A stretch of 32,000 nt of DNA from Tannockella kyphosi. GTDB taxonomy: Bacteria > Bacillota_I > Bacilli_A > Erysipelotrichales > Coprobacillaceae. How positions within the stretch are numbered: position 1 is the first letter of the stretch; the number at the start of each line of letters is the position of its first letter. The notes beneath the pieces were generated by a model, which worked only from the letters and a program-made list of their open reading frames with translations, searched no databases and was not told the DNA's origin. This document shows, piece by piece, positions 1-27,360 of this stretch. The position numbers were made by a program, and so were the translations under genes. The stretch lies in the NCBI RefSeq assembly GCF_021054785.1, contig NZ_CP088239.1:1470001-1502000 (forward strand), given 5' to 3'.

Positions 1-1740
<1,740 letters not shown>

Positions 1741-2059
1741 TATTGGTGTGTTGTACTTTCGTACACTTTTTTTGTTTTTTGTTTGCTTGAGTTACTATTT
1801 TTTTTGACTATTTATACGTTCGTATTTTTTGGTGTCTTTTTTAATAATAATCTTAGTTTTTCGACTTAAACTAGAAAGACCACAATTCTTAATTTATTAA
1901 TTATTCTGGTTTTAATCTTTCGATCTCTTTTTCTAATCTATTTCGCAATTTGTTATCCAGTTTTCAATGATCTCTTGAGTGAGAGTTTCACTCAAAACTA
2001 AACAGAAATTTTTCGAATTCACAACTTTGGTTACTACCTTGTTTTTTGTTTTACTCCTT
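1741..2059 (-). other. 16S-23S internal transcribed spacer without tRNA genes
   Basis: It lies between the 16S 3' end (2060) and the 23S 5' end (1740). It is AT/T-rich, and I saw no tRNA-like acceptor or T-arm sequence such as the GGGCTATAGCTCAG complement. Confidence 0.85.
1961..2008 (-). promoter_or_regulatory. Spacer copy of a boxA-like 15-mer (1961-1975) plus the 3' half of the 16S processing stem (1994-2008)
   Basis: ttttcaatgatctct at 1961-1975 is repeated exactly at 3686-3700. aaaactaaacagaaa at 1994-2008 is the perfect reverse complement of 3675-3689, so the two flank the 16S gene. The RNA reads CATTGAAAAC, similar to Firmicute boxA (CTTTGAAAAC). Confidence 0.6.
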
Positions 2060-3589
<1,530 letters not shown>

Positions 3590-11718: not shown

Positions 11719-14217
11719 CTACTTCCCAATCATTTTCTTTAATTCTATCAAAGTAGAAAGTGCATCTAATGGAGATAGAGCCATTGGATCTATCTGTTCT
11801 AATTGTTTTTCTATTTGACTTGTTTGTATTTCTATTATTGGTTGTTCTACCAATTTAACTTCAATATTGTTTGTTTCTAACATATTTAATAGTACATTTG
11901 CACGACTAATAATAGAGTCTGGTAATTTAGCTAATGAAGCAACATGAATACCATAAGACTTATTAGAACACCCTGGTAATACTTGGTATAAAAACACGAG
12001 TTTATCATTTTCAACGATTGCACTAGCATGGACATTTTCGATTCCTAGTCCTTGATCAGACAAGAAAGTTAATTCATGATAATGGGTTGAAAATAAAGTA
12101 ATACATTTTATCTTAGAAGCAATATGTTCTATCATTGCCTGTGCAATTGCCATTCCATCAAAAGTGGCAGTACCTCTACCTATTTCATCAAATAGAATAA
12201 GTGAGTTTTCTGTTGCAAAATTAAGTGCATTGTTAGCTTCTAACATCTCCACCATAAAAGTAGATTGACCAGCCACTAAATCATCACTCGCACCAATACG
12301 TGTAAAGACTTGATCAAAGATTGGTAATTTAGCACTAGTTGCAGGGACAAAGCAACCGATTTGTGCCATTATCACACTTAGTGCAACTTGTCGCATATAA
12401 GTTGATTTTCCACCCATATTTGGACCAGTTATTAATTGAACTGGTGTAAGTTGTTGAATAGAAACATCATTACTAACATAACGTCCCTTTTCCATTACTT
12501 TTTCTATAACGCCATGACGACCTTGTGTAATTTCAATTGTTTTTTGTTCATTAAAAATAGGGCGTACATAACTATTATCACTACTAATACAAGCCAATGA
12601 TTGATATACATCAATCATTGCTATTGTTTTGGCAATATCTTGTAATAGATGTACATCTTTTTTCAAGAATTCTCTTAATTCTTGGAAAATAGAGTATTCT
12701 AGCTTCATACTTTTATCTTGAGCATGAATAATTTTAGTTTCCATTTCTTTTAGTTCTGGAGTAATGAATCTTTCTGCATTGGATAAACTTTGTTTTCTTG
12801 TGTATTCAAATTCATCTTTTACAAAAGGAATATTTGCTTTCGTTACTTCAATATAGTATCCAAATACTCTATTATATCCCACTTTCAAACCTTTGATTCC
12901 AGTTCGTTCCCGTTCTTGTTGTTCAAATGTAGCTAACCAATTTTTTCCATGATTACGGATATAACGTAATTCATCCAATTCTTCATCAAAACCATCTTTA
13001 ATAAAAGATCCTTCTTTGATTGATAATGGTGGATTATCTATAATTGCATCATCAATAGCCTTTGTAATATAAGATACATCTATTAAACGAGTTGCAATTT
13101 CTTGAACATCATGATCAGGGATACTTAGTAATTGTTCTTTTATTTCAGGGATTGTTTTTAATGTATTTCCAATCCATTTCATATCACGAGCATTTAGATT
13201 ACCAAACGCTATTTTTGCAGATAAACGTTCTAAATCATATACCTCTTTTAGAACCTCTTTTAAACTTTCTCTTTGAATAAAGTGTAAATTTAAAATCTCA
13301 ACGATATCTAATCTTTTTTCTATTTCTGCTTTTTTTACTAAAGGTCTTTCAATCCATTGTTTTAGATATCTTGATCCCATTGCTGTTTTTGTTTGATCTA
13401 ATAACCAAAATAAACTACCATATTTCTCATTGTTTTTAGTATTTGTTGTTAATTCCAATGCTTTTTTCGTATATAAATCCATTGTTATATAAGCACTATG
13501 ATCAATTACTTCTATATTTTGTAAATGCGATAATTCTCTTTTTTGGGTATCTAATAAATAATTTAATAACAGATTACATACTTTATGTTGTTTTAAGTCA
13601 CTTAAATTATCAAATATTTTATCATATCCCGTTTGTGTTTCTTCTTTATCAAAACAAGAAACAACACAACTTCCAAAAGTTCTTTGTTGATTAGATAAAC
13701 AAACTACTTCTAAAACATTCATAGCTTGTAATTGATTAATTAAATTATGTTCATTTTTTTCAATATTAACAACTTTAAATTCTCCTGTTGTAATATCACA
13801 AAAAGATAAACAATATACAAAATCAAACTCATAAAATGCTGCAATAAAATTATTCTTTTTATTCGCTAATGAATCATCAAATATAGTACCTGGAGTTACA
13901 ATTTGAACTACTCCTCTTTCTACAATTCCTTTTCCAGGTTCACTTAATTGTTCTACTATTGCAACACGATGATTTAATTCAATCAAGCGTTGTATATATC
14001 CAGAAGCACTATGAAAAGGAACACCACACATCGGTACTCTTTCCTTTGCACCAGCATTTTTTCCAGTTAAAGCTATTTCTAATTCTTTTGATACAACCAA
14101 AGCATCATCAAAAAACATCTCATAAAAATCACCTAATCGAAACATTACAATATCATTAGGATGTTGTTCTTTGATTGATAAATATTGCATCATCATGGGA
14201 CTATATTTTGGCTTCAT
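11719..14217 (-). CDS. mutS: DNA mismatch repair protein MutS
   Basis: 832 aa with N-terminal MMQQYLSIK..FYEMFF (mismatch-binding domain), Walker A GPNMGGKSTYMRQ, DEIGRGT and STHYHEL. Confidence 0.96.
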   Translation of the reverse strand: MKPKYSPMMMQYLSIKEQHPNDIVMFRLGDFYEMFFDDALVVSKELEIALTGKNAGAKERVPMCGVPFHSASGYIQRLIELNHRVAIVEQLSEPGKGIVERGVVQIVTPGTIFDDSLANKKNNFIAAFYEFDFVYCLSFCDITTGEFKVVNIEKNEHNLINQLQAMNVLEVVCLSNQQRTFGSCVVSCFDKEETQTGYDKIFDNLSDLKQHKVCNLLLNYLLDTQKRELSHLQNIEVIDHSAYITMDLYTKKALELTTNTKNNEKYGSLFWLLDQTKTAMGSRYLKQWIERPLVKKAEIEKRLDIVEILNLHFIQRESLKEVLKEVYDLERLSAKIAFGNLNARDMKWIGNTLKTIPEIKEQLLSIPDHDVQEIATRLIDVSYITKAIDDAIIDNPPLSIKEGSFIKDGFDEELDELRYIRNHGKNWLATFEQQERERTGIKGLKVGYNRVFGYYIEVTKANIPFVKDEFEYTRKQSLSNAERFITPELKEMETKIIHAQDKSMKLEYSIFQELREFLKKDVHLLQDIAKTIAMIDVYQSLACISSDNSYVRPIFNEQKTIEITQGRHGVIEKVMEKGRYVSNDVSIQQLTPVQLITGPNMGGKSTYMRQVALSVIMAQIGCFVPATSAKLPIFDQVFTRIGASDDLVAGQSTFMVEMLEANNALNFATENSLILFDEIGRGTATFDGMAIAQAMIEHIASKIKCITLFSTHYHELTFLSDQGLGIENVHASAIVENDKLVFLYQVLPGCSNKSYGIHVASLAKLPDSIISRANVLLNMLETNNIEVKLVEQPIIEIQTSQIEKQLEQIDPMALSPLDALSTLIELKKMIGK

Positions 14218-14248
14218 TTCTTATTCTCCTACTACAAAATTCTTTACC

Positions 14249-14257
14249 ATTATAACA
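14249..14257 (-). promoter_or_regulatory. Extended -10 promoter element for mutS-mutL-miaA
   Basis: The minus strand reads TGTTATAAT (TGnTATAAT) immediately after the cotE terminator T-run, about 30 nt upstream of the mutS RBS AGGAG. Confidence 0.5.
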
Positions 14258-14262
14258 CAAAA

Positions 14263-14281
14263 GTAGGGCCTAAGGCCCTAC
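14263..14281 (-). terminator. Rho-independent terminator of cotE
   Basis: On the minus strand, GTAGGGCC-TTA-GGCCCTAC (8-bp GC-rich stem) is followed by TTTTGTGTT. It starts directly after the cotE TAA stop. Confidence 0.8.
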
Positions 14282-14779
14282 TTAATCAATAAAACTATCA
14301 TTTAATGAGACTAGGTTATCAATATCCCAAGTCTCTTCTTCTTGATGCACTTTAATACGTAAGGTTGCATCCCCTATTATTTGTACTAACATTTCTTTTT
14401 CAACTTCAATAACTAATTGATCATTCGCCAAACAAGCATCTACACACTTTGGTTCTAATGTACAAATAGCTTCTATCCCATCTTCATTATTAAAGATACG
14501 ATTTTCTTTTTTTATTACTTCCATATCCTCTTGATAAGATATTTGTGTTTTATATAAAGCACAATTTTTACCATCTTCATTACTGTACCAAACATGTAAA
14601 TCATAAACCCCGATCACTTGGGGAATCCCATTACTAATGGCAGCCTCATAACGATGACAACTTATCCAACATCCCAATATTTTAGTAACACCTTCTAATG
14701 AGAAGGTGTACTTTGTTTTGGTTCTTTTTTTGCCTTTTCCAATGATCGCACGAGTGATGATTTCTCGAATCTGATTCAT
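14282..14779 (-). CDS. cotE: Spore outer-coat morphogenetic protein CotE homologue
   Basis: Blocks match Bacillus subtilis CotE as I recall it: REIITRAIIGKGKK (Bs REIITKAVVAKGRK), ILGCWISCHRYEA (Bs ILGGWIINHKYDA), YDLHVWYS (Bs YDINVWYS), plus an acidic C-terminus. The position directly upstream of mutS matches Bacillus. The ATG at 14779 lies 6 nt after AGGTG. Confidence 0.85.
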   Translation of the reverse strand: MNQIREIITRAIIGKGKKRTKTKYTFSLEGVTKILGCWISCHRYEAAISNGIPQVIGVYDLHVWYSNEDGKNCALYKTQISYQEDMEVIKKENRIFNNEDGIEAICTLEPKCVDACLANDQLVIEVEKEMLVQIIGDATLRIKVHQEEETWDIDNLVSLNDSFID

Positions 14780-14826
14780 TTTATTCACCTCTAGTTATCA
14801 TATGAAAAAGTTTTAAAAAAATGACA

Positions 14827-16009: not shown

Positions 16010-16945
16010 TTAAATTGTACAAACCATAACTGTCATTGTTCCATCTAGAACAAATTCTTTTTTATCAGCACATACGATACAATGACTACCAGCTTTTACT
16101 GCTTTTCCTTCTAATGTACCTTCTCCACTAACAACACTTACCATCATAAAAGGCATATCATTTTTAACTGTAGTAACTCCAGTAAGATCATATTTATCTA
16201 CTTGGAAATATTTTGTAGTAGTCATATGTGTTTTTGTTCCATTTTCAATTGATTCTGCTTTTAAATCATCTCCAGCAGTAGAAACATATGGTACATTGGT
16301 TACATCGATAGATTGACGAACATGTAATTCTCTTTCATTTCCTTTATCATCTACTCGATGATAATCATATACTCGATAGGTAATATCTGATGATTGTTGT
16401 GCTTCATAAATTAATGATCCACTACAAATGGCATGAATAGTCCCTGTTGGAATCGTAAAAAAATCCCCTTCTTTTACTGGAAAAGCATTTAACAGACTAT
16501 CATAATTATCATTTTCAATTGCTTCTACTAATTCTTCTTTCGTCTTAGCATGATGGCCCATTACCATCTTAGTTCCTTCATCTGCTCCCAGTACATACCA
16601 ACACTCTTCTTTTCCTAATGAATTTTCATGTTCTTTTGCATATTCATCATCTGGATGTACTTGAACAGATAAATCATTATTAGCGTCAATTATTTTTACT
16701 AACAAAGGAAATTGATCCCCTTCTAAATTTCCAAATAGCTCACGATGATCATTCCATAATTCTGATAATTTCTTACCAACAAATTCACCTTCACTAATAA
16801 CACAATCCCCATTTTTATGAGCTGATAAAGCCCAACATTCTCCTGTTTTATCACTAGGAATATTATAACCGTATACTTCTTTTAACTTACTTCCACCCCA
16901 AATCATTTCTTTAAATACTGGGTCCATCCATAAAATACCACTCAT
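16010..16945 (-). CDS. manA: Mannose-6-phosphate isomerase, class I (short Bacillus ManA/Pmi type)
   Basis: Motifs PVFKEMIWGG, LSVQVHPDDEYA, GKEECWYVL and IPTGTIHAI give the Q/H/E/H zinc ligand set. I chose the second ATG (16945) because AGGAGA is 6 nt upstream; the ORF-track start at 16951 has no spacer. Confidence 0.9.
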   Translation of the reverse strand: MSGILWMDPVFKEMIWGGSKLKEVYGYNIPSDKTGECWALSAHKNGDCVISEGEFVGKKLSELWNDHRELFGNLEGDQFPLLVKIIDANNDLSVQVHPDDEYAKEHENSLGKEECWYVLGADEGTKMVMGHHAKTKEELVEAIENDNYDSLLNAFPVKEGDFFTIPTGTIHAICSGSLIYEAQQSSDITYRVYDYHRVDDKGNERELHVRQSIDVTNVPYVSTAGDDLKAESIENGTKTHMTTTKYFQVDKYDLTGVTTVKNDMPFMMVSVVSGEGTLEGKAVKAGSHCIVCADKKEFVLDGTMTVMVCTI

Positions 16946-16961
16946 TTTCATTCTCCTTCTA

Positions 16962-18017
16962 CTAGTTTTTATTTACAACTATTATACCACGTTCCATTAA
17001 ATATTTGGTAGTAATTCCATGCCCTTTTATTAGTTTTTTTCCAAACGTACCATCATAGACAATATCTTTACCACAGCTTGGACTTTTCGATTTTAAAAGC
17101 ACTTCATTGATAGCGTTTTCTTGAATTATTTCAAAGCATTTTTTAGCTCCTTGAATAAATTCATACGTTTTATCTACCCCTAATTGATTTATTACTTTGT
17201 CTCCTTGTATTTCACAACTAATCCTTGGAATAGGTAACCCTCCAAGTACTTCAGGACATATACACAATAATCTATTCTTCTTTAAATCTTCCTCTATATC
17301 TTCCAAACCATTATCCTTACCATCATAACGACAACAATGACCCGCTAAACATGCACTAACTGCTTTTGTTGGTGTTTCTAACTGATTTACTAATTCAACC
17401 ATTTGACTAGGGTGACAAATCACTTCTCTTGCCCCTGCTTTTAAAAGTTCTGCCTGGCTACGAAATCCCCAAGTTACACCTATTCCATAAACACAACCAT
17501 AAAAACTAGTTAACATATCTACATCACTATCACCAACATACACAACTTCCCCATGCTTGCAAGATGCTTTCTTTCTGATTGTATCTATCATATAACTATT
17601 AGGTTTTCTAGGATATTCTTTGCTACTACCATACACTGCCATAAATGTATTACTAAATAAATGGTTCACAATTCTAGTAGCCAAATCATGTGGTTTATTT
17701 GTTGCAACAGCCAACAAATAACCTTGTTGTTTTAAATCTTCTAGCATTTTATAAATACCATCATAAACTACCGTTTTATCAAAACAATGCTCGTTATAAT
17801 ATTCAAAAAATAAAGACTTTGCTTCTTCTTTATATTCTTGTTTTTCTCCTAATGCCTTCTCTATCAAAACATCAACACCATTTCCAATAAATTGTTTATA
17901 GGCTTCATAAGGATGTGTTTCTAACCCAATACACTCCAATGCATAATTCACTGCATTTGCAAGATCATACAAAGAATCAATCAATGTTCCATCTAAATCA
18001 AAGATACATAACTTCAT
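16962..18017 (-). CDS. Fusion protein: HAD-superfamily phosphatase (Gph/PpaX-like) N-terminal, DUF523 (TudS-type 4Fe-4S desulfidase family) C-terminal
   Basis: HAD motifs FDLDGTLIDS, VATNKP and VGDSDVD are followed in the same frame by DUF523 signatures SACLAGHCCRYDG, CPEVLGGLPIPR and SPSCG. The ATG at 18017 lies 5 nt after AAGGAGGTG; the ORF-track start at 18089 lacks an RBS. Confidence 0.8.
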   Translation of the reverse strand: MKLCIFDLDGTLIDSLYDLANAVNYALECIGLETHPYEAYKQFIGNGVDVLIEKALGEKQEYKEEAKSLFFEYYNEHCFDKTVVYDGIYKMLEDLKQQGYLLAVATNKPHDLATRIVNHLFSNTFMAVYGSSKEYPRKPNSYMIDTIRKKASCKHGEVVYVGDSDVDMLTSFYGCVYGIGVTWGFRSQAELLKAGAREVICHPSQMVELVNQLETPTKAVSACLAGHCCRYDGKDNGLEDIEEDLKKNRLLCICPEVLGGLPIPRISCEIQGDKVINQLGVDKTYEFIQGAKKCFEIIQENAINEVLLKSKSPSCGKDIVYDGTFGKKLIKGHGITTKYLMERGIIVVNKN

Positions 18018-18120
18018 AGTGCCACCTCCTTTACCCATCATACTCTCACTTCTATCATCAAACAAGCTTCTTTTCTTTTTTTTATACATATGCTAGAATA
18101 AAGTATATGAGGTGAGGAAG

Positions 18121-18321
18121 ATGAACAAAAAGAGCACAATTTTCATGGAATTAGGGACTGTATTAGGGATGGCTATCGCATTAGTTTTCACCATTATTTT
18201 TGTCTATATCATTAAACAATATACAAATACTGTTCCTTTTCTATTTATTGGTTTTGCAATAATCGGAAGAGTCATTGGATATGGTTTAGATACTATTGTT
18301 AATAAATCAAATAATCATTAA
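18121..18321 (+). CDS. Small membrane protein, two predicted TM helices, function unknown
   Basis: 66 aa with hydrophobic stretches LGTVLGMAIALVFTIIFVYII and VPFLFIGFAIIGRVIGYGL. An RBS GAGGTGAGGA lies upstream of the ATG, and the gene is followed by a strong terminator. Confidence 0.55.
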   Translation: MNKKSTIFMELGTVLGMAIALVFTIIFVYIIKQYTNTVPFLFIGFAIIGRVIGYGLDTIVNKSNNH

Positions 18322-18323
18322 TG

Positions 18324-18350
18324 AAAAAAGCGGAAATTCCGCTTTTTTTT
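18324..18350. terminator. Bidirectional rho-independent terminator
   Basis: aaaaaagcgg-aaatt-ccgctttttttt has the stem flanked by an A-run and a T-run. It serves the small + strand gene and the convergent AKR genes. Confidence 0.8.
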
Positions 18351-18394: not shown

Positions 18395-19231
18395 TTATTC
18401 AAACAAGATATAATCACTATCCTTGTATGAACCACCACAGGTATCGATTGCATCGATAATTTCCATATCTTCTTGACTAATTATAAAGTCTAATTGAAGA
18501 TTTTCTATCATTCTATCTTTTGAAACACTTTTAGATAGTGGTAAAACATCATGTTGTAATGCATATTGAATACATAATTGAGATAAACTAACCCCATATT
18601 TATTAGGTATCTCTTGCAACTTATCACATTGGAATACCCGTCCATTTGCTAATGGACTGTATCCAACAACAACAATATTATGTTGTTTACAATATTCTCT
18701 TAATTCATTATGTAAACATGATGGATGAAATTCAATTTGATTTACCATTGGTAAAATCATAGCACTTTCCATAATTTCTTGCAAATGATGGATTTTAAAA
18801 TTACTAACACCAATTGATTTAATTCTTCCTGCATTGTATAAATCTTCCATCGCACGCCATGTTTCTTTATTAGATGCAATATAGGTATCATTACATCCTT
18901 TTGGTACAGGCCAATGAATTAAATATTGGTCCAAATAATCAACTCCTAAATCTTGACAAGTTTTCTCGAAAGCAGCTATTGTTTCATGATATCCTCTTAC
19001 TGAGTTCCATAATTTACTAGTAATAAAAATATCCTCTCTTTTTACACCACTTAACTGTATTCCTTGACCCACTTCTATTTCATTATCATACTTAGCGGCG
19101 CAATCCAAATGAGTAAAACCGCATTGCAATGCATCACACACTGCTTGTGATGTAACATTATTTTCTGCTTTCCAAGTACCAAAACCAATTTTTGGCATTT
19201 CTAATCCATTACTTAAAATAAATTTTTCCAT
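18395..19231 (-). CDS. Aldo-keto reductase (YvgN/YtbE / 2,5-diketo-D-gluconate reductase-like), paralogue 1
   Basis: 278 aa with the AKR catalytic tetrad context: HLDCAAKYDNE (D, Y), ITSKLWN (K) and LIHWP (H). VSNF and MVNQIEFHP are also present. Confidence 0.9.
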   Translation of the reverse strand: MEKFILSNGLEMPKIGFGTWKAENNVTSQAVCDALQCGFTHLDCAAKYDNEIEVGQGIQLSGVKREDIFITSKLWNSVRGYHETIAAFEKTCQDLGVDYLDQYLIHWPVPKGCNDTYIASNKETWRAMEDLYNAGRIKSIGVSNFKIHHLQEIMESAMILPMVNQIEFHPSCLHNELREYCKQHNIVVVGYSPLANGRVFQCDKLQEIPNKYGVSLSQLCIQYALQHDVLPLSKSVSKDRMIENLQLDFIISQEDMEIIDAIDTCGGSYKDSDYILFE

Positions 19232-19240
19232 TATATTACC

Positions 19241-20086
19241 TTAACTTTCATATGGGATATTATCACTGTCTTTTAAAGAACTTTCACAAGATGTGATAGC
19301 ATCAATTGCTTGCATGTCTTCATCACTAATAACAAAATCTAATTCTAAATTTTTCTTTATTCTCTCATTTGTTATGCTTTTTGCAAGAGGGATTACATCA
19401 TGTTGTATCGCATATTGAATACAAATTTGTGCTAAAGATACTCCATATTTTTCAGGAAATGGTTTTAATTCTTCACAACGGAATACTCTACCGTTTCCAA
19501 AAGGACTATATCCTGTAATTTGAATTCCTAATTTTTTACAGTATCCTCTTAATTCATGATGTAAACAAGAGGGATGGAATTCAATCTGATTTACCATCGG
19601 AACAATCTTAGCACTTTCCAACAATTCTTCTAAATGATGAATTTTAAAATTACTAACACCAATAGACTTAATTCTACCTGCTTCATACAAGTCTTCCATT
19701 GCTCGCCAAGTTTCTTTATTAGATTCAACATAGGTATCATTACACCCTTTTGGAACTGGCCAATGAATTAAATACTGATCTAAATAATCTACACCTAAAT
19801 CAGAACATGTTTTTTCAAATGCAGCAATAGTTTGATCATATCCTCTTGCATTATTCCATAATTTGCTAGTAATAAAAATATCTTCTCTTTTTACACCACT
19901 TTTTTTAATCCCTAATCCTACTTCTTTTTCATTTTTGTAAATTGCAGCTCCATCTACATGGCTATACCCACATTGTAAGGCATAACAAACAGATTCTACT
20001 GTCACTTCTGGTTTTTCACCTGGGCAACAAGAACCAAAGCCAGGAGCAGGCATTTCCAACCCATTTCTCAATTTAAACATTTTCAT
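19241..20086 (-). CDS. Aldo-keto reductase, paralogue 2
   Basis: It carries the same tetrad (HVDGAAIYKNE, ITSKLWN, LIHWP). The central block is near-identical to paralogue 1. The ATG at 20086 follows GGGAGAA, and the longer ORF-track start at 20113 would run into a terminator hairpin. Confidence 0.88.
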   Translation of the reverse strand: MKMFKLRNGLEMPAPGFGSCCPGEKPEVTVESVCYALQCGYSHVDGAAIYKNEKEVGLGIKKSGVKREDIFITSKLWNNARGYDQTIAAFEKTCSDLGVDYLDQYLIHWPVPKGCNDTYVESNKETWRAMEDLYEAGRIKSIGVSNFKIHHLEELLESAKIVPMVNQIEFHPSCLHHELRGYCKKLGIQITGYSPFGNGRVFRCEELKPFPEKYGVSLAQICIQYAIQHDVIPLAKSITNERIKKNLELDFVISDEDMQAIDAITSCESSLKDSDNIPYES

Positions 20087-20105
20087 AAATATTCTCCCAT
20101 ATTCC

Positions 20106-20136
20106 AAAAACAAGAGTGAATATGTTCTCTCTTGTT
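20106..20136 (-). terminator. Terminator-like hairpin between PMI-like gene A and the AKR genes
   Basis: On the minus strand, AACAAGAG-12 nt-CTCTTGTT is followed by TTTGG, giving an effective T-run of 5. It lies 30 nt downstream of the gene A stop and just upstream of the AKR2 RBS. Confidence 0.5.
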
Positions 20137-20165: not shown

Positions 20166-21926
20166 TTATTCGTAAGCATTTCCCATATCCATAAATACTT
20201 CTAGGATAGCTAATTCTTTTTCAGGCTTCCCTACTGGACGTACAACGAATTGTCCACAACTAGCAGGAACATATACCGCTTCTGCATATCGAATTGGCAT
20301 TGGTTCAAATGAACCATCCACACTTTCAATACTAGCTTCATCCCCTTCGACTAAGATCATTAATGTAACACGATCATTTGTTTCAAAGAATACACTTTTT
20401 GTAAACCAATAACGATCTACTGTTAATAATTCTAATTCCATTGTACCACTATGTTCTTTTCTCCAACCAGTTCCTCTAGCAATTTCAGAACGTTTAGAAA
20501 CTAAATGATCCATTACATATTTAGTTTGGAATTTTTCTTGAATTACTTGAGAACCACGTTCAATATTAATTGGTCTAGGTTTTCCATCTGCATCAATACG
20601 TCCCCAGTCCCATAATTTAAATGTTTGATATCCAATTGGGTTAATTTCTAGAACTACTGTATCTTTACCAGAACAGTGAATTGTTCCACTAGGAATAAAG
20701 ATATGATCATGAGTTTTCATAGGAATACGATTAATCCATTTTTCATCATCGAATTCACCAGTAACTTGAGCTTCCTTGAAAGCTTCTACTAATTCATCAA
20801 CATTCACTCCATCTTTTGTTCCTAAATATACTGATGAATCTTCTGTCGTATCCATCATATAATAACTTTCATAATGTCCAAAATGATTATTAAATACATC
20901 ATGAGAATAAGCAATATCTGGATGTACTTGTAAGCTTAAGTTTCCTCCACCCCAAGTATCTAAGAAGTCACATCCGATTGGGCAGTTATAGCCAAACCAG
21001 AAGAAGTTTTGATTTCCTAAGAATTCAATTGGTTGATAGTGATAAATATCTCTACCTACTACTCTAAATTCATTATCTCCAATTTTTGCTAACGCACTTT
21101 GATGATTTGTCCAACCATGCATACCCCATGCACTGTTATCATTTTCTAAACCACCACCTAATACATCTTGACACCAATGTCCACCCCAAATACCTCTATT
21201 AAAGAAAGTATCTAATTTAAATGGAGTTGATGCAAAAGTTCTTAATGTTTGACGATAATCTTCACCACTTGTCATTAATGGTTTTTCAATATCATCCCCA
21301 TCAATTACAAAATCCATATCTTCAAAAGATCTTCTTTTATGACGATCTAATAAAATTGATTCTACGAAATTAAATGTTTTTTCTTTTGTTAATGGATCTT
21401 CATCAGGATTGTCCATAGCCCAGTTTGTTAACTCTCCAAAATATCCACTTTTAACTCTTTGGATAGTGATATTGTTATAAACAAAGATATCACCTTTTGT
21501 AATAACAGCTGCTCCAACACCATAAACTACTGTTAAACCATCAAATCCTTCAATTTCAGCTTTTGTAGCTTCTACTTTTGCTTCATCGAAATATTCATCC
21601 ACATGCCCTAAAGCAAACACACCATTAATTCTATCGTCAGTAATATATGGACGATAAATTTTTTCTTGGAATTTTTCTTCACTAATTAAAACACTGTCAC
21701 TACAAATAACATGATCTGGATTTAATTTTTCTATCACTTCACTAATAATTTTTGCATTATCAATATCATAATAATAATCAATTACTAATACACATTTTCC
21801 TGCTTTTTCATCAATTTTACTTTTAATAACATCTCTAATTTCATCATACCCTGTCCAAGAAACTGTCCCAGGTACTGGTAAAACTGGATGTAATTCAAAA
21901 TTTCTTCTTTTTCTAGTCAATGTCAT
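20166..21926 (-). CDS. Two-domain protein A: unassigned ~230-aa N-terminal domain plus a type-I phosphomannose-isomerase-like cupin
   Basis: 586 aa. The C-terminal half aligns by eye to the local ManA: GIWGG, LSLQVHPD, GHYESYY and IPSGTIHCS, so the Q/H/E/H ligand set is kept. The N-terminal half has alternating beta/alpha-like segments (VLVIDYY, LTVVYGVGAA) with no motif I can name. An RBS GGAGGT lies 8 nt upstream of the ATG. Confidence 0.7.
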   Translation of the reverse strand: MTLTRKRRNFELHPVLPVPGTVSWTGYDEIRDVIKSKIDEKAGKCVLVIDYYYDIDNAKIISEVIEKLNPDHVICSDSVLISEEKFQEKIYRPYITDDRINGVFALGHVDEYFDEAKVEATKAEIEGFDGLTVVYGVGAAVITKGDIFVYNNITIQRVKSGYFGELTNWAMDNPDEDPLTKEKTFNFVESILLDRHKRRSFEDMDFVIDGDDIEKPLMTSGEDYRQTLRTFASTPFKLDTFFNRGIWGGHWCQDVLGGGLENDNSAWGMHGWTNHQSALAKIGDNEFRVVGRDIYHYQPIEFLGNQNFFWFGYNCPIGCDFLDTWGGGNLSLQVHPDIAYSHDVFNNHFGHYESYYMMDTTEDSSVYLGTKDGVNVDELVEAFKEAQVTGEFDDEKWINRIPMKTHDHIFIPSGTIHCSGKDTVVLEINPIGYQTFKLWDWGRIDADGKPRPINIERGSQVIQEKFQTKYVMDHLVSKRSEIARGTGWRKEHSGTMELELLTVDRYWFTKSVFFETNDRVTLMILVEGDEASIESVDGSFEPMPIRYAEAVYVPASCGQFVVRPVGKPEKELAILEVFMDMGNAYE

Positions 21927-21939
21927 ATATCATTACCTC

Positions 21940-23721
21940 CTAACAGTTTACATATACTTCTAGAACAGCTAATTCTTCACCAGCTGATTTTCCATAAGGA
22001 CGAATAGTGTATTGTCCTGCTGCAGGTGGTACAAAGACAGCTTCTGCATAGTGCATAATCATTGGTTCAAATTCACCGTCTAAACTTTCAAGAATTGCTT
22101 CTTCACCTTCAACTAATACATGAATCATGATGCAATCATTTGGATCAAAGTGAACTGCATTTTTAAACCAATATCTATTTACTTCCATTGGTGATTCAAA
22201 TGTATTTGTTCCACTTCTTTCTTTACGCCAACCATGTCCACAAGCAATTTCTTGTTTTTTAGAAATAAATTGATCTTTTATCATAGTAGTTTGGAATTCT
22301 TCTTGGATTACATTTTTACCATGATCAATATTAATTGGTCTAGGTTTTCCATCATAATCAAGACGACCCCAATCCCATAATTTAAATGTTGTAAATGAGA
22401 ATAAATCGATTTCTAATGTTAATGTATCTTTTGCAGAAGAATGAATAGTTCCTCCTGGGATAAAGATATGATCATGTTTTTTCATTGGGAAATTATTAAT
22501 CCATTTTTCATCATCAAACTCACCAGTAACTTGTGCTTCTTCAAAAGCTTCTACTAATTCATCTAATTTAACACCATCTTTTGTTCCTAAATATACAGAA
22601 CTGTTTTCACATGCATCTAACATGTAATAACTTTCATAATGACCCCATTTAGAGTTAAATTCTTCTTGTGCATAAGAGATAGTTGGATGAACTTGTAAAC
22701 TTAAGTTTTGACCACCCCAAGTATCTAAGAAATTCACATGTAAAGGACATCTGTATCCATATAGATACCAAATTTTACGTCCTAATGTTTCTTTTGGTGC
22801 GTATTGAACTAAATCTGTTGATGGGAATTCAAATAATGCATTATCTAACTGTGCCGCTACAGCTTGCCAATCTAAATAACCATGAACACCCCAAGCAGAG
22901 TTTTCTAAACCTTCTGCAACACCTAATACTTTTTGAGCCCAGTTACCACCCCAAACTCCAGCTAAGAAAATAGGGATAGGTTTGAATGGACTTGTTGCAA
23001 ATTTCATAACAACAGTATCAAACTGACTTTGTGTAAGCATAACTACATCATCATCTCTATTAAAGTCAACAATGTAATCACATTCTTTCATCATTTTTCT
23101 TTTATGTTTATCTTGAACTATACATTCAACAAATAACCAACGTTTTTCTTTTCTTAAATAATCTTCATCATAGTTTTTAGCACCCCAGTTATCCAAACCT
23201 TCTTTCCATTTATCTTTGATAGTTTGAGAACTGATATTACCGTAAACTAATACATCTGGATTGCACACTAAACTAGCAGCAACACCGTGCACTACAACTA
23301 AACCTTTTGCTTCTTCTATTTGTTTTTTAGTTGCTTCAATACATTCAGGATCTAAGAAATCTGCAATTGTTCCTACAATATACACCCCATTTACACGATC
23401 TTCTGTGATATATTGAGCAAATTTTTTAGATATAATACTTTCATCATATTTACAATCATCGCCATCAACAATAAGTGATGGAGATAATTTATTGGCAATT
23501 TCTTTTACCAAATTTTCATTAATACCATGATAATAGTCAATACAAACTACTACTTTTTCTTTGTTTAAAGACCCAATTTTCTTATTCAATTCTTCAACAA
23601 TTGCATCAATACCTTTTGTTGCAACAACTCCTGGTACTGCTTTTACTGGGTATTTATCAAAATTTGGAACTCTGTTTTCTACTTCGTACATTTTTCTAAC
23701 ATGACAATAAAATATTGTCAT
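21940..23721 (-). CDS. Two-domain protein B: paralogue of A (N-terminal unknown domain plus PMI-like cupin)
   Basis: 593 aa with GVWGG, LSLQVHPT, GHYESYY and IPGGTIHSS. Long blocks are identical to A (SSVYLGTKDGV, DELVEAF.EAQVTGEFDDEKWIN). The start is uncertain: ATG 23721 sits 2 nt after AAAGGAG, and ATG 23691 aligns better with the N-terminus of A. Confidence 0.7.
   Translation of the reverse strand: MTIFYCHVRKMYEVENRVPNFDKYPVKAVPGVVATKGIDAIVEELNKKIGSLNKEKVVVCIDYYHGINENLVKEIANKLSPSLIVDGDDCKYDESIISKKFAQYITEDRVNGVYIVGTIADFLDPECIEATKKQIEEAKGLVVVHGVAASLVCNPDVLVYGNISSQTIKDKWKEGLDNWGAKNYDEDYLRKEKRWLFVECIVQDKHKRKMMKECDYIVDFNRDDDVVMLTQSQFDTVVMKFATSPFKPIPIFLAGVWGGNWAQKVLGVAEGLENSAWGVHGYLDWQAVAAQLDNALFEFPSTDLVQYAPKETLGRKIWYLYGYRCPLHVNFLDTWGGQNLSLQVHPTISYAQEEFNSKWGHYESYYMLDACENSSVYLGTKDGVKLDELVEAFEEAQVTGEFDDEKWINNFPMKKHDHIFIPGGTIHSSAKDTLTLEIDLFSFTTFKLWDWGRLDYDGKPRPINIDHGKNVIQEEFQTTMIKDQFISKKQEIACGHGWRKERSGTNTFESPMEVNRYWFKNAVHFDPNDCIMIHVLVEGEEAILESLDGEFEPMIMHYAEAVFVPPAAGQYTIRPYGKSAGEELAVLEVYVNC
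23701..23721 (-). repeat. Perfect 9-3-9 inverted repeat covering the annotated start codon of PMI-like gene B
   Basis: On the minus strand, ATGACAATA-TTT-TATTGTCAT. The 5' arm begins with the ATG at 23721. Confidence 0.6.
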
Positions 23722-23746: not shown

Positions 23747-23779
23747 AAAAGGGTTACTAGAATCTAAAGTAACCCTTTT
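23747..23779 (-). terminator. Intra-locus terminator/attenuator-like hairpin between PTS IID and PMI-like gene B
   Basis: aaaagggttac (23747-23757) pairs with gtaaccctttt (23769-23779) around an 11-nt loop. On the minus strand the stem is followed by TTTTATTAT. Confidence 0.5.
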
Positions 23780-23790
23780 TTTGTTTTCTA

Positions 23791-24618
23791 CTAAATAATT
23801 CCTGCTACTGTACAAACAGTTGCGAATACTAATAAAGTTAAAATTAATTTAATTGCACTGAATTTTTTGTATTTCAATAAATAATATCCTACTAAAACTA
23901 AACACATAGGAATTAATTTAGGGAAAATTGCATCAAGTTGACTTTGAATGTTTACTGTATTAGTTTCACTAACGAATTCAGTAACAACATTGAAAGATAC
24001 GAAACTAGCAGTAATTGATCCTACTACTGTAAGACCTAGAACAGATAAAGCTTCTTGGATCTTTGCCATTTTCTTTCCTAATAAATCTTTAGCAGCATCA
24101 CGTCCAATTTGATATCCTTGAGTGAAGAATATTCTAGACATAACTAAACATGAACCAAAATACATTACGATTGCGAAGATTGCTCCAAGTGGGCTACCTC
24201 CAGCAGCTAAACCGATACCAATACTTAATGCGATAGGAGTAATAGTTCCTTGGATAACTGCATCACCGATACCAGCTAAAGGTCCCATTAAACCAACTTT
24301 AATATTATTTACAAATTCGTCTGAAATGTCAGCACCTTTTGCAATTTCTTCTTCTACAGAAGCTACGATACCATTTGTGATTGAACCAAAAATTGGATTT
24401 GTATTATAGAATACTGAATGACGTTTCATTGCAGCAACCATTTTTTCTGGATCATCACTGTAATATTTTTCAAAAATTGGTAACATTGATAATAAGAAAC
24501 CTGGTTGTTGTAAACGTTCAAACCCGAATACACCTAAGTTATATTTGTACCAGAAGTACCAAACCTTATCAAGATCTTTTTTTGTTAAAGGTTCTACTAC
24601 TTTTTCTGTTGAACTCAT
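23791..24618 (-). CDS. PTS mannose-family EIID component
   Basis: 275 aa with the typical IID N-terminus (LTKKDLDKVWY..FERLQQPGFLLSMLP) followed by membrane segments. The start ATG overlaps the IIC stop (ATGA). Confidence 0.9.
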   Translation of the reverse strand: MSSTEKVVEPLTKKDLDKVWYFWYKYNLGVFGFERLQQPGFLLSMLPIFEKYYSDDPEKMVAAMKRHSVFYNTNPIFGSITNGIVASVEEEIAKGADISDEFVNNIKVGLMGPLAGIGDAVIQGTITPIALSIGIGLAAGGSPLGAIFAIVMYFGSCLVMSRIFFTQGYQIGRDAAKDLLGKKMAKIQEALSVLGLTVVGSITASFVSFNVVTEFVSETNTVNIQSQLDAIFPKLIPMCLVLVGYYLLKYKKFSAIKLILTLLVFATVCTVAGII

Positions 24619-25415
24619 AATAATTCATCCTCCTCATCTACTGTCCCAACTGATTGACTACCAGATTCAGCAGTGAACATATAATACATAACAGCTAAAC
24701 AAGTACCGATTACTGCTACAGCAGTCATGTCTAACCCTAAATATCCTATACATACGATACCTAAAACATAATAAATAATGAATTTTGTTTCTTTTAATGT
24801 ATAAGTTAACAAGATTGAAACCCCAACAACTGGTAAGATACCACCTAAGTTACCTGCAATATCTAATACTAATTGAGGTACAGCAGCTAAGAAATCAGCA
24901 GCGAATGCATTTCCTAACATTACAGTTGTGAAAGTTAAACCAAAACGAACAACAAAGCTTGTCACAATTGGTAACACTTTGTAAGTGAATTTTAATTTTT
25001 TAACATCATTTGCTTCAATACATTTATCACCTAAGTTATAGAATACAGAACAGAATACTTCATAAGCTGTAAATACTGCAGCTCCTAATACCCCAATTGT
25101 TGCTGCTAAAGCAACTGCAACTTCCGCATCTGCCCCAGCAATCATTGCAAGTGCAATTGATGGATAAGAAACGAATGCCATATCTGCTACAGCTACCCCA
25201 CCAATTAACGCATTTCCTAAATACATTGCTTGGATTGCAGCTCCGATGATAGCACCAGTAGCCATATCTCCTAAAATAATACCAACGATAACCCCACCAA
25301 CTAATGGTTTTGATAAACAGTCTGCCCAGATAATCCCAAATGGTTGAGGGTTTTCTACTGAACCAAACCAACATGCGATACCTATTAACGCGGCTTGTAA
25401 TACACTAACTTCCAT
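24615..25415 (-). CDS. PTS mannose-family EIIC component
   Basis: 266 aa, highly hydrophobic, with an IIC-Man-like N-terminus (LQAALIGIACWF). An RBS GAAGGAGG lies upstream, and the gene starts 2 nt after the IIB stop. Confidence 0.9.
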   Translation of the reverse strand: MEVSVLQAALIGIACWFGSVENPQPFGIIWADCLSKPLVGGVIVGIILGDMATGAIIGAAIQAMYLGNALIGGVAVADMAFVSYPSIALAMIAGADAEVAVALAATIGVLGAAVFTAYEVFCSVFYNLGDKCIEANDVKKLKFTYKVLPIVTSFVVRFGLTFTTVMLGNAFAADFLAAVPQLVLDIAGNLGGILPVVGVSILLTYTLKETKFIIYYVLGIVCIGYLGLDMTAVAVIGTCLAVMYYMFTAESGSQSVGTVDEEDELL

Positions 25416-25417
25416 GT

Positions 25418-25921
25418 TTATTTTCCTCCTTCATAAACTTTCTTGGCTTCCGCCCAATTTAATCCTTTTTCATCTGGAGTTAATTTGAATTTTAATTCAA
25501 TGTTTTGTGAATCCAGATATTCACAATATTCTACATCTTTCTCTGAAAGGTAAACATTATTATATGCACGTATAGTATTAGGCGCTTTACTTGCAGTACC
25601 GAAAATAATTTCATTACCGAAGTCTACCCCTCTTTTTTTAAGTTCATATAATTGTTCCACTTTTTTTGCAACTAGATAATAATTCTTTTTACCTTCAATA
25701 GCTTTCGGTATTTTTTCTACCGCTTCGTCTACACCAAAGATATAAACTTTCTTTCCTAACGCATTACCAGCTTCAGTAAATATTTCTGTTAAGAAACTGT
25801 CTTCGAAAAACTTATCATCTACAACTAAGATGATTGCATCTCCAACACGAACCTTTGTCCATAAAACAACTACTTGTCCATGGATTAAACGGTCGTCAAT
25901 TCGTACTAAACTAAGTGCCAT
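25418..25921 (-). CDS. PTS mannose-family EIIB component
   Basis: 167 aa. The signature LVRIDDRLIHGQV contains the phosphorylatable His. Confidence 0.92.
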   Translation of the reverse strand: MALSLVRIDDRLIHGQVVVLWTKVRVGDAIILVVDDKFFEDSFLTEIFTEAGNALGKKVYIFGVDEAVEKIPKAIEGKKNYYLVAKKVEQLYELKKRGVDFGNEIIFGTASKAPNTIRAYNNVYLSEKDVEYCEYLDSQNIELKFKLTPDEKGLNWAEAKKVYEGGK

Positions 25922-25960: not shown

Positions 25961-26350
25961 TTACAATTTTTTTACTGCAGTTTTACCAGTTTCCATAGCT
26001 TGGTTTACCAAATCTTCCGTACTCATATCTGTTTGTGAGAAAATCGCCAATTCAATTACCATTGCTAGGTTCATTCCCGCAACTACCGCATAGTCAACTT
26101 CATGTTTACGTATATAACGGAAACATTCGTTGTACGGTGTAGCGTTTGGTATGTCAGTAACAATAATTATTTCGTCAAATGTTTCATTCATTTTTGAAAT
26201 TTTATCTTCTAACGCAGCTCGAAAGCTTTCTACACCATCTTCGCCTAGAGATATGGTATCCACCACTTCTTGGGGTCCCATAATCATTTCTAAACTGTCT
26301 TTCACTCCTACACACATTGTAGAATGACTCACTAATAAAATCCCTCTCAT
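25961..26350 (-). CDS. PTS mannose-family EIIA component
   Basis: 129 aa. The N-terminus ILLVSHSTM carries the His-9-type phosphorylation site, and the fold pattern is EIIA-Man (IIVTDIPNATP). An RBS GAAAGGAGA lies upstream. Confidence 0.85.
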   Translation of the reverse strand: MRGILLVSHSTMCVGVKDSLEMIMGPQEVVDTISLGEDGVESFRAALEDKISKMNETFDEIIIVTDIPNATPYNECFRYIRKHEVDYAVVAGMNLAMVIELAIFSQTDMSTEDLVNQAMETGKTAVKKL

Positions 26351-26420: not shown

Positions 26421-26444
26421 GTTGTAATGTAGTAACATTACAAC
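26421..26444. promoter_or_regulatory. Perfect 10-4-10 palindrome, candidate operator of the adjacent GntR/HutC regulator
   Basis: gttgtaatgt-agta-acattacaac has a central GT-N4-AC core as in GntR-family sites. It starts 2 nt downstream of the -10 box and so covers the predicted transcription start. Confidence 0.6.
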
Positions 26445-26445
26445 T

Positions 26446-26473
26446 ATTATAGCACATATGTAAGCGGTGTCAA
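26446..26473 (-). promoter_or_regulatory. Near-consensus sigma-A promoter of the PTS locus
   Basis: The minus strand reads TTGACA (26473-26468), a 16-nt spacer, then TGcTATAAT (extended -10, TATAAT at 26451-26446). Confidence 0.7.
26458..26472. promoter_or_regulatory. Catabolite-responsive element (cre, CcpA site)
   Basis: atgtaagcggtgtca fits WTGNAANCGNWNNCW at every constrained position. It overlaps the -35 box and the spacer. Confidence 0.6.
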
Positions 26474-26535: not shown

Positions 26536-26585
26536 CAAAATAAAAAAGAGGTTCTATTTTATGTATAACATAAAATAGAATCTCT
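26536..26585 (-). terminator. Rho-independent terminator of the GntR/HutC gene
   Basis: 17-nt arms (26547-26563 and 26569-26585) have one non-Watson-Crick position and a 5-nt loop. On the minus strand the stem is followed by TTTTTTATTTT. Confidence 0.8.
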
Positions 26586-26613
26586 TTCTCTGTTTTCGTC
26601 CTATAAAACTAGA

Positions 26614-27360
26614 TTATAATAAATTGATTTTTAACTCATAATCATTTGCAAGATATTTTGAAGCATTGTATTCTACTGGAAAACCTTTACTAAAAGCTTT
26701 TCTTTTTCTTTCTATTACCGCAAAAGATTCTTCTAATTGAAAATAGTCATGTTCCTTTTCAGTTGCAACATGCGCCGAAATAACTTCATTTACCGCATCA
26801 ACACGATATCCCTTTTCTTCTAACATATCATATAATGACCCTTTAAAATCTTCTACTGTACAATGAATTTTAGGATTTAAGTAAGATTCAGAATGGGTAA
26901 CTACCAAATTATCTACAAGATGTTGTCTAATCATAAAAATACATTTCATACTAACCGTAATTCCAAAGAAATCTCTTATTTCAGCAGGAGGTAAAGCATA
27001 TTCAAGTTTTACTAATTTACGTTCTTGATTATCATTATTTTCTTTTACTCCTAAATAACTAGATTGTAAAGAAGTACTAATTAAATTATCATTTCTTATA
27101 ACGACTGTACCAATCCCTCGTTCTCTAGACACTAACCCCTTAACAAAAAGTCTATCCAACGCTTTACGGACAGTTACTCTAGAGACCTCGTATTTCTCGA
27201 CCAATTCTTTTTCACTAGGAATTAAATCGCCTTGTTTATAAACTTTATTTAAAATATCCGCTTCTATTATATCGTACAATTGGCTCCATAATGGTTTTTC
27301 ACCTGCACCTTGAATAAGTCTCACAATAATCCCTACTTTCTTTTCACTTTCAATTCTCAT
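26614..27360 (-). CDS. GntR-family transcriptional regulator, HutC subfamily (wHTH plus UTRA effector domain)
   Basis: The N-terminal wHTH reads PLWSQLYDIIEADI..GDLIPSEKELVEKYEVSRVTVRKALDRL. The C-terminal ~150 aa is UTRA-like. The start is uncertain: ATG 27360 lacks an RBS, and the alternative GTG 27324 follows TAGGGA. Confidence 0.85.
   Translation of the reverse strand: MRIESEKKVGIIVRLIQGAGEKPLWSQLYDIIEADILNKVYKQGDLIPSEKELVEKYEVSRVTVRKALDRLFVKGLVSRERGIGTVVIRNDNLISTSLQSSYLGVKENNDNQERKLVKLEYALPPAEIRDFFGITVSMKCIFMIRQHLVDNLVVTHSESYLNPKIHCTVEDFKGSLYDMLEEKGYRVDAVNEVISAHVATEKEHDYFQLEESFAVIERKRKAFSKGFPVEYNASKYLANDYELKINLL

Follow-up and report, generated by a model that had tools for sequence, protein, structure and literature searches.

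The window analysed here, 32,000 nucleotides of Tannockella kyphosi contig NZ_CP088239.1 (positions 1,470,001 to 1,502,000), encodes a tandem pair of long-form relatives of class I mannose-6-phosphate isomerase (phosphomannose isomerase, PMI). Both genes are intact on the minus strand at the place given in the initial annotation, which had reported tandem open reading frames (ORFs) of about 590 aa at 20166-23721. ORF A occupies 20166-21926 and encodes 586 aa, and ORF B, 13 bp ahead of it, occupies 21940-23721 and encodes 593 aa. The reading that we favour, with moderate confidence, is that A and B are anciently duplicated members of a subfamily, here called GHxE after its active-site motif. 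In this reading they are metal-dependent isomerases lacking the catalytic lysine, joined to a kinase-derived module that does not transfer phosphate, and they are supplied with substrate by a phosphotransferase system (PTS). The long form is a widespread and consistently annotated enzyme family that has been partly mis-described.

The cupin domain and its active site

The C-terminal part of the long form is a PMI-type bicupin. It covers 20166-21221 in A and 21940-22986 in B. The last 350 or so residues of A are 25% identical to the short ManA encoded nearby (329 columns, E 4e-20). A also matches the B. subtilis PMI in the PDB, 1QWR, with an E value of 5.7e-14 by phmmer and 1.8e-23 with a 56-sequence family profile. 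The 56-sequence alignment was the input for an AlphaFold (AF2) model of full-length A, which has a pLDDT of 93.9 and a pTM of 0.93. Foldseek placed the C-terminal part of this model on 1QWR with an E value of 2e-22 and a target TM score of 0.85, as a bicupin fold. The next matches were 1ZX5 and the PMIs of S. typhimurium (2WFP) and C. albicans (1PMI), and no solved structure found with the full-length model spans the long form.

The metal site is retained. The motifs IWGG, LSLQVHP, GHYESYY, and IPSGTIH are in register with the short ManA in every alignment, as the initial annotation had seen by eye. The equivalents of the four metal ligands are Q333, H335, E353, and H417 in A, with 93-99% conservation across a diverse set of 74 long forms. 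Alignment of B to A by BLAST gives Q343, H345, H361, E363, H416, H418, and H427 as the active-site residues of B.

The remainder of the active site has been remodelled. In the Bacillus enzyme BaM6PI, Gln98, Lys116, and Glu118 have been described as catalytic, and the lysine is the proposed shuttle for the proton that moves from C2 to C1 (PMC4718643). This lysine, two residues ahead of the glutamate ligand, pairs with His351 of A in all alignments and with His361 of B. Of the 74 long forms aligned, 51 have His here, 21 have Gln, and none has Lys; Lys is found in all ten short PMIs taken from these loci. A second lysine, that of LxKxLD (K86 of the S. typhimurium enzyme, with the register confirmed by alignment), is Asp or Asn in the long forms. 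The two proteins had been described as catalytically intact; this is true of the metal site, whereas the proposed acid/base lysine (now His351) and the K86 equivalent have been lost. Two further histidines of A, His406 and His408, take the place of Gly and Phe. They are almost invariant among long forms and specific to them. The equivalent of Glu264 is retained. The basic residue of the short-form YRVYDY motif, which we take from the S. typhimurium and E. coli ManA sequences to be the phosphate-binding Arg274 of the S. typhimurium enzyme, is Arg in 10 of 10 short forms and Lys in 69 of 74 long forms (Lys437 in A). By sequence this is a conservative substitution.

The crystallised B. subtilis protein is not a typical PMI. 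In 1QWR a lysine replaces the ligand glutamine, and the protein was inactive until the K96Q mutation was made (PMC4718643). The protein that usually serves as structural reference for short PMIs is thus itself atypical. The short ManA of the window keeps both the glutamine and the catalytic lysine.

The N-terminal domain

The N-terminal domain is predicted to have a P-loop kinase fold that lacks the P-loop. It comprises residues 1-235 of A (21222-21926) and approximately residues 1-245 of B (22987-23721). The initial annotation could not assign this region of about 230 residues to any family, and at the sequence level that remains the case: a scan of 36 members against Pfam at E<=10 gave no match, and neither did NCBIfam or a profile search of PDB sequences. 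The structural comparison, on the other hand, does give an assignment. The AF2 model of the isolated domain from A has a pLDDT of 92, and Foldseek matches it to type I PanK (1.1e-5), NRK1 (2.8e-4), and PRK (5.4e-3), with TM scores of about 0.45-0.55. All of the top 25 matches are PanK, NRK1, TTM1-kinase, or PRK structures, with other nucleoside monophosphate kinases afterwards, and a genuine uridine kinase retrieves the same set of families by sequence. The model thus places the domain in the PanK/NRK/uridine kinase/PRK fold group.

The domain is confined to this protein family. A phmmer search with it against 1.84 billion representative sequences found only 353 clusters, in which it is always N-terminal, and the full-length proteins are 560-640 aa long. 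Matches of 230-260 aa were considered as possible stand-alone versions, and the one examined, P0162, ends at the end of its contig. No Pfam domains were found in the extra regions of the longest relatives (P0156, P0252, P0135, P0052, and P0187).

The Walker A motif is absent from all 89 long forms in the fetched loci. In A the loop after strand 1 reads DYYYDIDN in place of GxxxxGK[ST], and the family pattern is D/E-Y-Y-H/Y-G-V-D/N-E. The sole GxxxxGK[ST] match in the 74-sequence alignment, GMLAVGKT in P0065, lies elsewhere in the domain, outside this loop. The conserved residues of the domain are D50 (Asp or Glu), D98, G102, G136, D146, Y150, N168, N173, K181, K183, K197, and D205. They are located on loops or helices that follow predicted beta-strands, as read from the predicted secondary structure, and on that reading they would occupy the places where P-loop kinases bind ligands.

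The two domains appear to form a rigid unit. Residues 10-25 of A are modelled with higher confidence, and form a strand, only in the presence of the C-terminal domain, as seen by comparing the full-length and isolated models. Together with the pTM of the full-length model, this ordering indicates a fixed domain arrangement.

A role as a sugar kinase was considered for the N-terminal domain and rejected. It has no Walker A motif, and a PTS or ROK partner is encoded in 64 of the 85 loci described below, one of them as a ROK fusion. With phosphorylation assigned to such a partner in most loci, the domain is unlikely to be a kinase. Another alternative is that the protein is bifunctional and that the domain catalyses a further reaction, for instance phosphotransfer with a donor other than a nucleotide, phosphatase or mutase chemistry at Asp50, or opening of sugar rings. 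Conserved acidic and basic residues do follow predicted strands at kinase ligand-binding positions, and Asp/Glu50 terminates strand 1, at the site expected for a P-loop. We nevertheless regard a second activity as very unlikely. No HAD motif or other catalytic motif is recognisable and Walker A is missing, phosphorylation is supplied by a partner of the PTS or ROK type, and genes for dedicated HAD phosphatases lie close by.

Distribution and gene neighbourhoods

The long form is a very large family. Long-form sequence patterns match at least 599 species-level genomes from Bacillota, Enterobacterales, Vibrio, Aeromonas, Bacteroidota, Spirochaetota, and other groups. A tblastn search extended the list to Listeria monocytogenes, Parabacteroides distasonis, Deinococcus, and Hymenobacter. 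The family was not found in any of 5,426 E. coli genomes. The idea that the long form is rare can therefore be set aside. Databases label these proteins "class I mannose-6-phosphate isomerase". The possibility that they are a documented and characterised PMI subclass had been raised, and a literature search found no paper on the long form. For lmo2143, probably the Listeria long-form homologue judging from its gene neighbourhood, the literature search found transcriptomic studies only. A paper on manA of Gilliamella states neither the gene length nor the family. Some sulfoquinovose isomerases are PMI-like cupins, and the literature on sulfoquinovose isomerase likewise yielded no characterised long form.

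Gene neighbourhoods fall into distinct types. For 85 loci, ORFs were called, neighbouring proteins were clustered, and recurrent clusters were annotated with Pfam; the neighbourhood is taken as 10 kb. A mannose-family PTS is found in 32 loci and a ROK kinase and/or a GH38 or GH92 alpha-mannosidase in 32 others, and the two are never found together. Cupin-type phosphoglucose isomerase (PGI) is present in 31 of the 85 loci, GntR regulators in 39, and LacI regulators in 22. P. distasonis has the gene order long PMI, ROK, GH92, MFS, GH38. In Flammeovirga kamogawensis p1 (L095, 5011-7671) a ROK kinase, the P-loop-less kinase-fold domain, and the PMI cupin are fused into one protein of 886 aa. Its gene adjoins those for an MFS sugar porter and GH92, and it is annotated merely as "ROK family protein".

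The residue at the position of the lost lysine divides the family into two subfamilies, TQxE with 73 loci and GHxE with 11 loci including the window, of which about 8 or 9 are independent since L005, L006, and L011 carry near-identical copies. A and B are both GHxE proteins, while those of Listeria and P. distasonis are TQxE. The neighbours of the two subfamilies differ greatly. Cupin PGI (31/73), ROK kinase (27/73), and GH38/GH92 alpha-mannosidase (19/73) occur near TQxE genes and in none of the GHxE loci. Short PMI has the reverse distribution, with 9 of 11 GHxE loci and none of the 73 TQxE loci. AKR (aldo/keto reductase; 6/11 against 3/73), HAD phosphatase (6/11 against 4/73), DeoC aldolase (5/11 against 1/73), and Mannitol_dh (3/11 against 2/73) are also found near GHxE genes, and mannose-family PTS is shared by the two subfamilies (7/11 GHxE, 25/73 TQxE).

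Further GHxE contigs have two architectures. In one, a Gat-type PTS is combined with one short and one long PMI and with a dehydrogenase of the Mannitol_dh type. In the other, a Man-type PTS is accompanied by one to three long PMIs, one to four short PMIs, HAD, DeoC, and AKR. The contig L008 (GCA_036720495.1, 1-18060) is an extreme expansion of PMI-type isomerases, with three long PMIs (589, 592, and 593 aa), four short PMI-like cupins, AKR, DeoC, HAD, and GntR. The presence of three PMI-type cupins within 8 kb, which had been thought unusual, is accordingly normal for loci of this kind. A protein of 307-324 aa that has predicted membrane segments and no Pfam match is encoded immediately 3' of the PTS IID gene in GHxE Man-type loci (L005 12348-13307, L006 8186-9157, L008 4075-5049, L010 8910-9881, and L093 14051-14974); the window does not have it.

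These neighbourhoods bear on the substrate. The TQxE enzymes are plausibly, indeed probably, true PMIs of mannose and mannoside pathways. The GHxE genes lie beside short PMIs, AKRs, HAD phosphatases, and DeoC, and for this reason their substrate is probably not simply mannose-6-phosphate; they probably act upstream of mannose-6-phosphate and fructose-6-phosphate. The suggestion in the initial annotation that the substrate is a non-mannose sugar phosphate is favoured by the short PMI found within 10 kb in 9 of 11 GHxE loci and by the absence of ROK and alpha-mannosidase from all of them.

It is unlikely in our view that A and B are ordinary mannose-6-phosphate isomerases. They would then be isozymes redundant with ManA, the N-terminal domain would be an appendage for structure or oligomerisation, and the database annotation would be correct. 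The retention of all four metal ligands, of the Glu264 equivalent, and of a basic residue at the Arg274 position would fit such a role. So would the mannose family of the operon's PTS, and so would the TQxE relatives near ROK kinases, GH38/GH92 alpha-mannosidases, and sugar porters, one of them fused to ROK. However, the catalytic lysine has been replaced, and with a canonical short PMI in 9 of 11 GHxE loci and ROK or alpha-mannosidase in none, a third and a fourth PMI would be redundant. The differences between the A and B clades are concentrated beside the active site, and the conserved charged residues of the N-terminal domain are not what an appendage with a purely structural role would be expected to keep.

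The duplicated pair

A and B are the products of an old duplication. Over 575 aligned residues their identity is 49%, falling to 36% in the N-terminal domain (residues 1-235) and rising to 58% in the C-terminal remainder. Orthologous pairs in the order B then A are found in Massilimicrobiota (69% and 66% identity) and on the metagenomic contig L007 (60% and 62%), and Coprobacillus has the orthologues as fragments. The Massilimicrobiota pair is accompanied by the same set of genes (AKR, PTS, HAD, short PMI, GntR, and DeoC). At 49% identity, and with orthologous pairs known from other genera, A and B are neither an assembly artefact nor a recent duplication, in agreement with the view first taken of the pair.

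The two copies appear to have diverged in function. The A and B clades are discriminated by 33 positions, with clusters at 306-320, 337, 349, 418, and 425-434. These clusters adjoin the LDTWGG/QVHP, HxE, and GTIH motifs, and only five of the 33 positions are in the N-terminal domain. Because the discriminating sites are beside active-site motifs, divergence in specificity is suggested more than redundancy.

An obligate hetero-oligomer of A and B, for example a catalytic and a regulatory subunit or a composite active site, is quite unlikely. The pair has been kept in the order B then A, with gaps of 10-13 bp, in three genera, and L007 keeps it beside a GntR gene alone, with no PTS nearby. This conservation speaks for such an assembly. 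Against it, every conserved catalytic and N-terminal residue is present in both copies, and most members of the family are single-copy, more than one long form being found in only 4 of the 85 loci.

Proposed function and its support

Under the reading preferred here, that A and B are lysine-less isomerases with a kinase-derived module, the PTS would supply a phosphorylated hexose or a related sugar. B and A would carry out metal-dependent aldose-ketose isomerisations with His instead of Lys as the proton shuttle. They would differ in substrate specificity and would act either sequentially or in parallel. The product would join the mannose-6-phosphate/fructose-6-phosphate pool, and the canonical short ManA would act from there. 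The kinase-derived domain would transfer no phosphate and would instead be an integrated module for binding sugar phosphates, for closing over the active site as a lid, or for allosteric control.

Several points weigh against this reading. The assignment of the kinase fold is based on Foldseek TM scores of about 0.5 and has no profile-level sequence support: comparison with E. coli Udk by hhalign gave a probability of 0.3%, and 36 N-terminal domains gave no match to PF00485 or PanK at E<=10. The sequence tests against kinases being negative, the kinase link exists at the fold level only. The Udk sequence used was validated as a uridine kinase by search, and the 1,555 neighbouring ORFs include only one genuine uridine kinase, which is insufficient for a comparison profile. 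The cupin domain also falls outside curated models. Neither A nor B has a Pfam match at E<=0.1, including to PF20511 and PF21621, and their TIGR00218 scores are only 25.3 and 20.8 bits, respectively, compared to a cut-off of 116.2. The loss of the catalytic lysine could mean a different chemistry or a non-catalytic role. The mannose-linked context is a property of TQxE and does not carry over to A and B. Finally, the literature search found no assayed long-form enzyme.

A bolder interpretation, which we think has a low probability, is that the long form is a distinct enzyme type. The P-loop-less kinase-derived domain would add a second, conserved ligand site to a His-rich metal centre without lysine, and the GHxE members including A and B would act on a sugar phosphate or polyol phosphate delivered by a PTS. 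If so, one possibility is a two-isomerase relay that converts rare hexose or hexitol phosphates to mannose-6-phosphate or fructose-6-phosphate, with A and B acting successively or as a heteromer.

The long form is of interest beyond this locus. A protein of about 585 aa, approximately 40% of which is a domain found in no family database, is distributed across Bacillota, Enterobacterales, Vibrionaceae, Bacteroidota, Deinococcota, and L. monocytogenes. The active site of this widespread "class I mannose-6-phosphate isomerase" lacks the residue proposed as proton shuttle in characterised type I PMIs, and the GHxE members, including the A/B pair, may carry the wrong annotation. The P-loop-less kinase fold and the two subfamilies with mutually exclusive neighbourhoods lead to testable hypotheses about sugar catabolism in gut and marine environments.

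Organization of the locus

B and A are the fifth and sixth genes of a predicted eight-gene operon on the minus strand. A single operon is indicated because one strong promoter and one terminator bracket 26473-18324, and the genes in order are IIA, IIB, IIC, IID, B, A, and two AKR genes. The predicted promoter (26446-26473) has the form TTGACA-16-TGnTATAAT with an extended TG, matches the consensus at 12 of 12 positions, and was the top-scoring site in an 11.8-kb scan. Just past its -10 box is a perfect 9-bp inverted repeat, GTTGTAATG-N6-CATTACAAC (26421-26444), a candidate operator for the GntR regulator. The regulator is encoded directly upstream on the same strand (26614-27360) and is of the GntR/HutC type, with a GntR helix-turn-helix domain (Pfam, 5.5e-20) and a UTRA effector domain (3.6e-19). 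An AT-rich long hairpin with a 20-pair stem followed by a T run, TTTTATTTTG in the minus-strand reading (26545-26587), lies 3' of its stop codon and is probably the terminator of the regulator gene.

The transporter is a complete mannose-family PTS. Its components are EIIA (25961-26350, Pfam EIIA-man 7.9e-19), EIIB of the sorbose/mannose family (25418-25921, PTSIIB_sorb 7.6e-30), EIIC (24615-25415, EII-Sor 3.6e-49), and EIID (23791-24618, EIID-AGA 1.7e-83); Pfam matches for all five proteins, the four components and the regulator, thus define a mannose-family PTS operon with a GntR-UTRA regulator. Between the EIID gene and B, inside the operon, is a hairpin with a T run, GGGTTACT-N8-AGTAACCC (23747-23775), which was not flagged by the consensus scan. 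It is possibly a partial terminator or an mRNA-processing element, and it might reduce enzyme expression compared with that of the transporter.

The start of B is ambiguous. The annotated ATG lies within a perfect palindrome, ATGACAATA-TTT-TATTGTCAT (23701-23721, minus strand), with a Shine-Dalgarno sequence merely 2 nt upstream. The N-termini of the long-form family begin MYE..R.PNF, which corresponds to residue 11 of B. Translation may therefore begin at Met11 (ATG at 23691), which has no obvious Shine-Dalgarno sequence.

The operon ends with two aldo/keto reductases, AKR1 (19241-20113, Pfam Aldo_ket_red 4e-48) and AKR2 (18395-19231, 8.5e-50). AKR1 probably starts at an internal ATG, giving MKMFKL... 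The two are 70% identical and are a tandem duplicate, so that the operon contains two pairs of duplicated enzymes (B/A and AKR1/AKR2); in related loci there is only one AKR. A rho-independent terminator 3' of AKR2, AAAAAAAAGCGGAATTTCCGCTTTTTT, is formed by a GC hairpin flanked by A and T tracts (18324-18350, minus strand). It is bidirectional and is shared with a convergent small ORF (18112-18321, plus strand) that encodes a hydrophobic protein of 69 aa and has a good Shine-Dalgarno sequence.

The canonical ManA belongs to a separate downstream unit, which consists of a HAD-DUF523 fusion, ManA, and malic enzyme. ManA (16010-16951, minus strand) has 313 aa, or 311 aa from its second Met, and matches Pfam PMI_typeI_cat and MPI_cupin_dom, TIGR00218 (209 bits), and 1QWR (E 5.8e-92). 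Immediately upstream of it, at 16962-18089 on the minus strand, a HAD phosphatase (HAD_2) is fused to a DUF523/2-thiouracil desulfurase domain.

Other parts of the window contain unrelated genes, all on the minus strand. An rRNA operon at 1-3586, with a complete 16S gene (2062-3586) and the 5' 1,740 nt of the 23S gene (1-1740), accounts for the high GC content of the first 4 kb. At 11719-14788 are mutS and then a homologue of CotE, outer spore coat protein E, which indicates that this Erysipelotrichaceae genome has sporulation capacity.

Comparison with known systems

The long form shares features with several characterised enzymes and differs from each. Like the short Bacillus-type class I PMIs (B. 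subtilis YvyI, 1QWR; B. amyloliquefaciens BaM6PI; and ManA of the window), it has the bicupin fold (TM 0.85), the WGG motif, LSxQVHP with its Gln and His ligands, the Glu and second His ligands, a conserved Glu past the last ligand, and the D-x-x-R motif on the phosphate side. Unlike them, it has an additional N-terminal domain of about 230 residues and a two-residue TWGG insertion. The catalytic Lys is changed to His or Gln, the LxKxLD Lys to Asp or Asn, and Arg to Lys437; His406 and His408 are new; and scores fall below the curated Pfam and TIGR thresholds. The enterobacterial and eukaryotic type I PMIs (S. typhimurium 2WFP/3H1M, C. albicans 1PMI) have the same metal ligands (Q97, H99, E134, and H255 in S. 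typhimurium) and are also multi-domain proteins with an extra domain beside the catalytic cupin. Their extra domain is an inserted helical one, whereas that of the long form is N-terminal with a kinase fold, and they keep K86 and K132 (the latter being the catalytic lysine in S. typhimurium PMI numbering), which the long form has lost.

The N-terminal domain resembles type I PanK, NRK, uridine kinase, and PRK in its predicted three-layer alpha/beta fold and in the order of its secondary-structure elements. It differs from them in having no Walker A motif, no Pfam PRK or PanK match, and a TM score of only about 0.5. The type II bifunctional PMI/GDP-mannose pyrophosphorylases also combine a PMI cupin with an N-terminal alpha/beta domain in a single polypeptide. 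In those enzymes, unlike the long form, the N-terminal domain is an active nucleotidyltransferase and the cupin is of another PMI class; neither A nor B has a Pfam match to NTP_transferase. Cupin-type PGI (PF06560) is likewise a metal-dependent cupin hexose-6-phosphate isomerase and is the commonest TQxE neighbour (31/85 loci), but it is a single small cupin of 190-270 aa from another family and is not found in GHxE loci, including the window. Overall, the closest relatives of the long form are short Bacillus-type PMIs in the case of the cupin and PanK/NRK/uridine kinase/PRK kinases in the case of the N-terminal fold, and with each of them one defining feature fails, the catalytic lysine in the former and Walker A in the latter.

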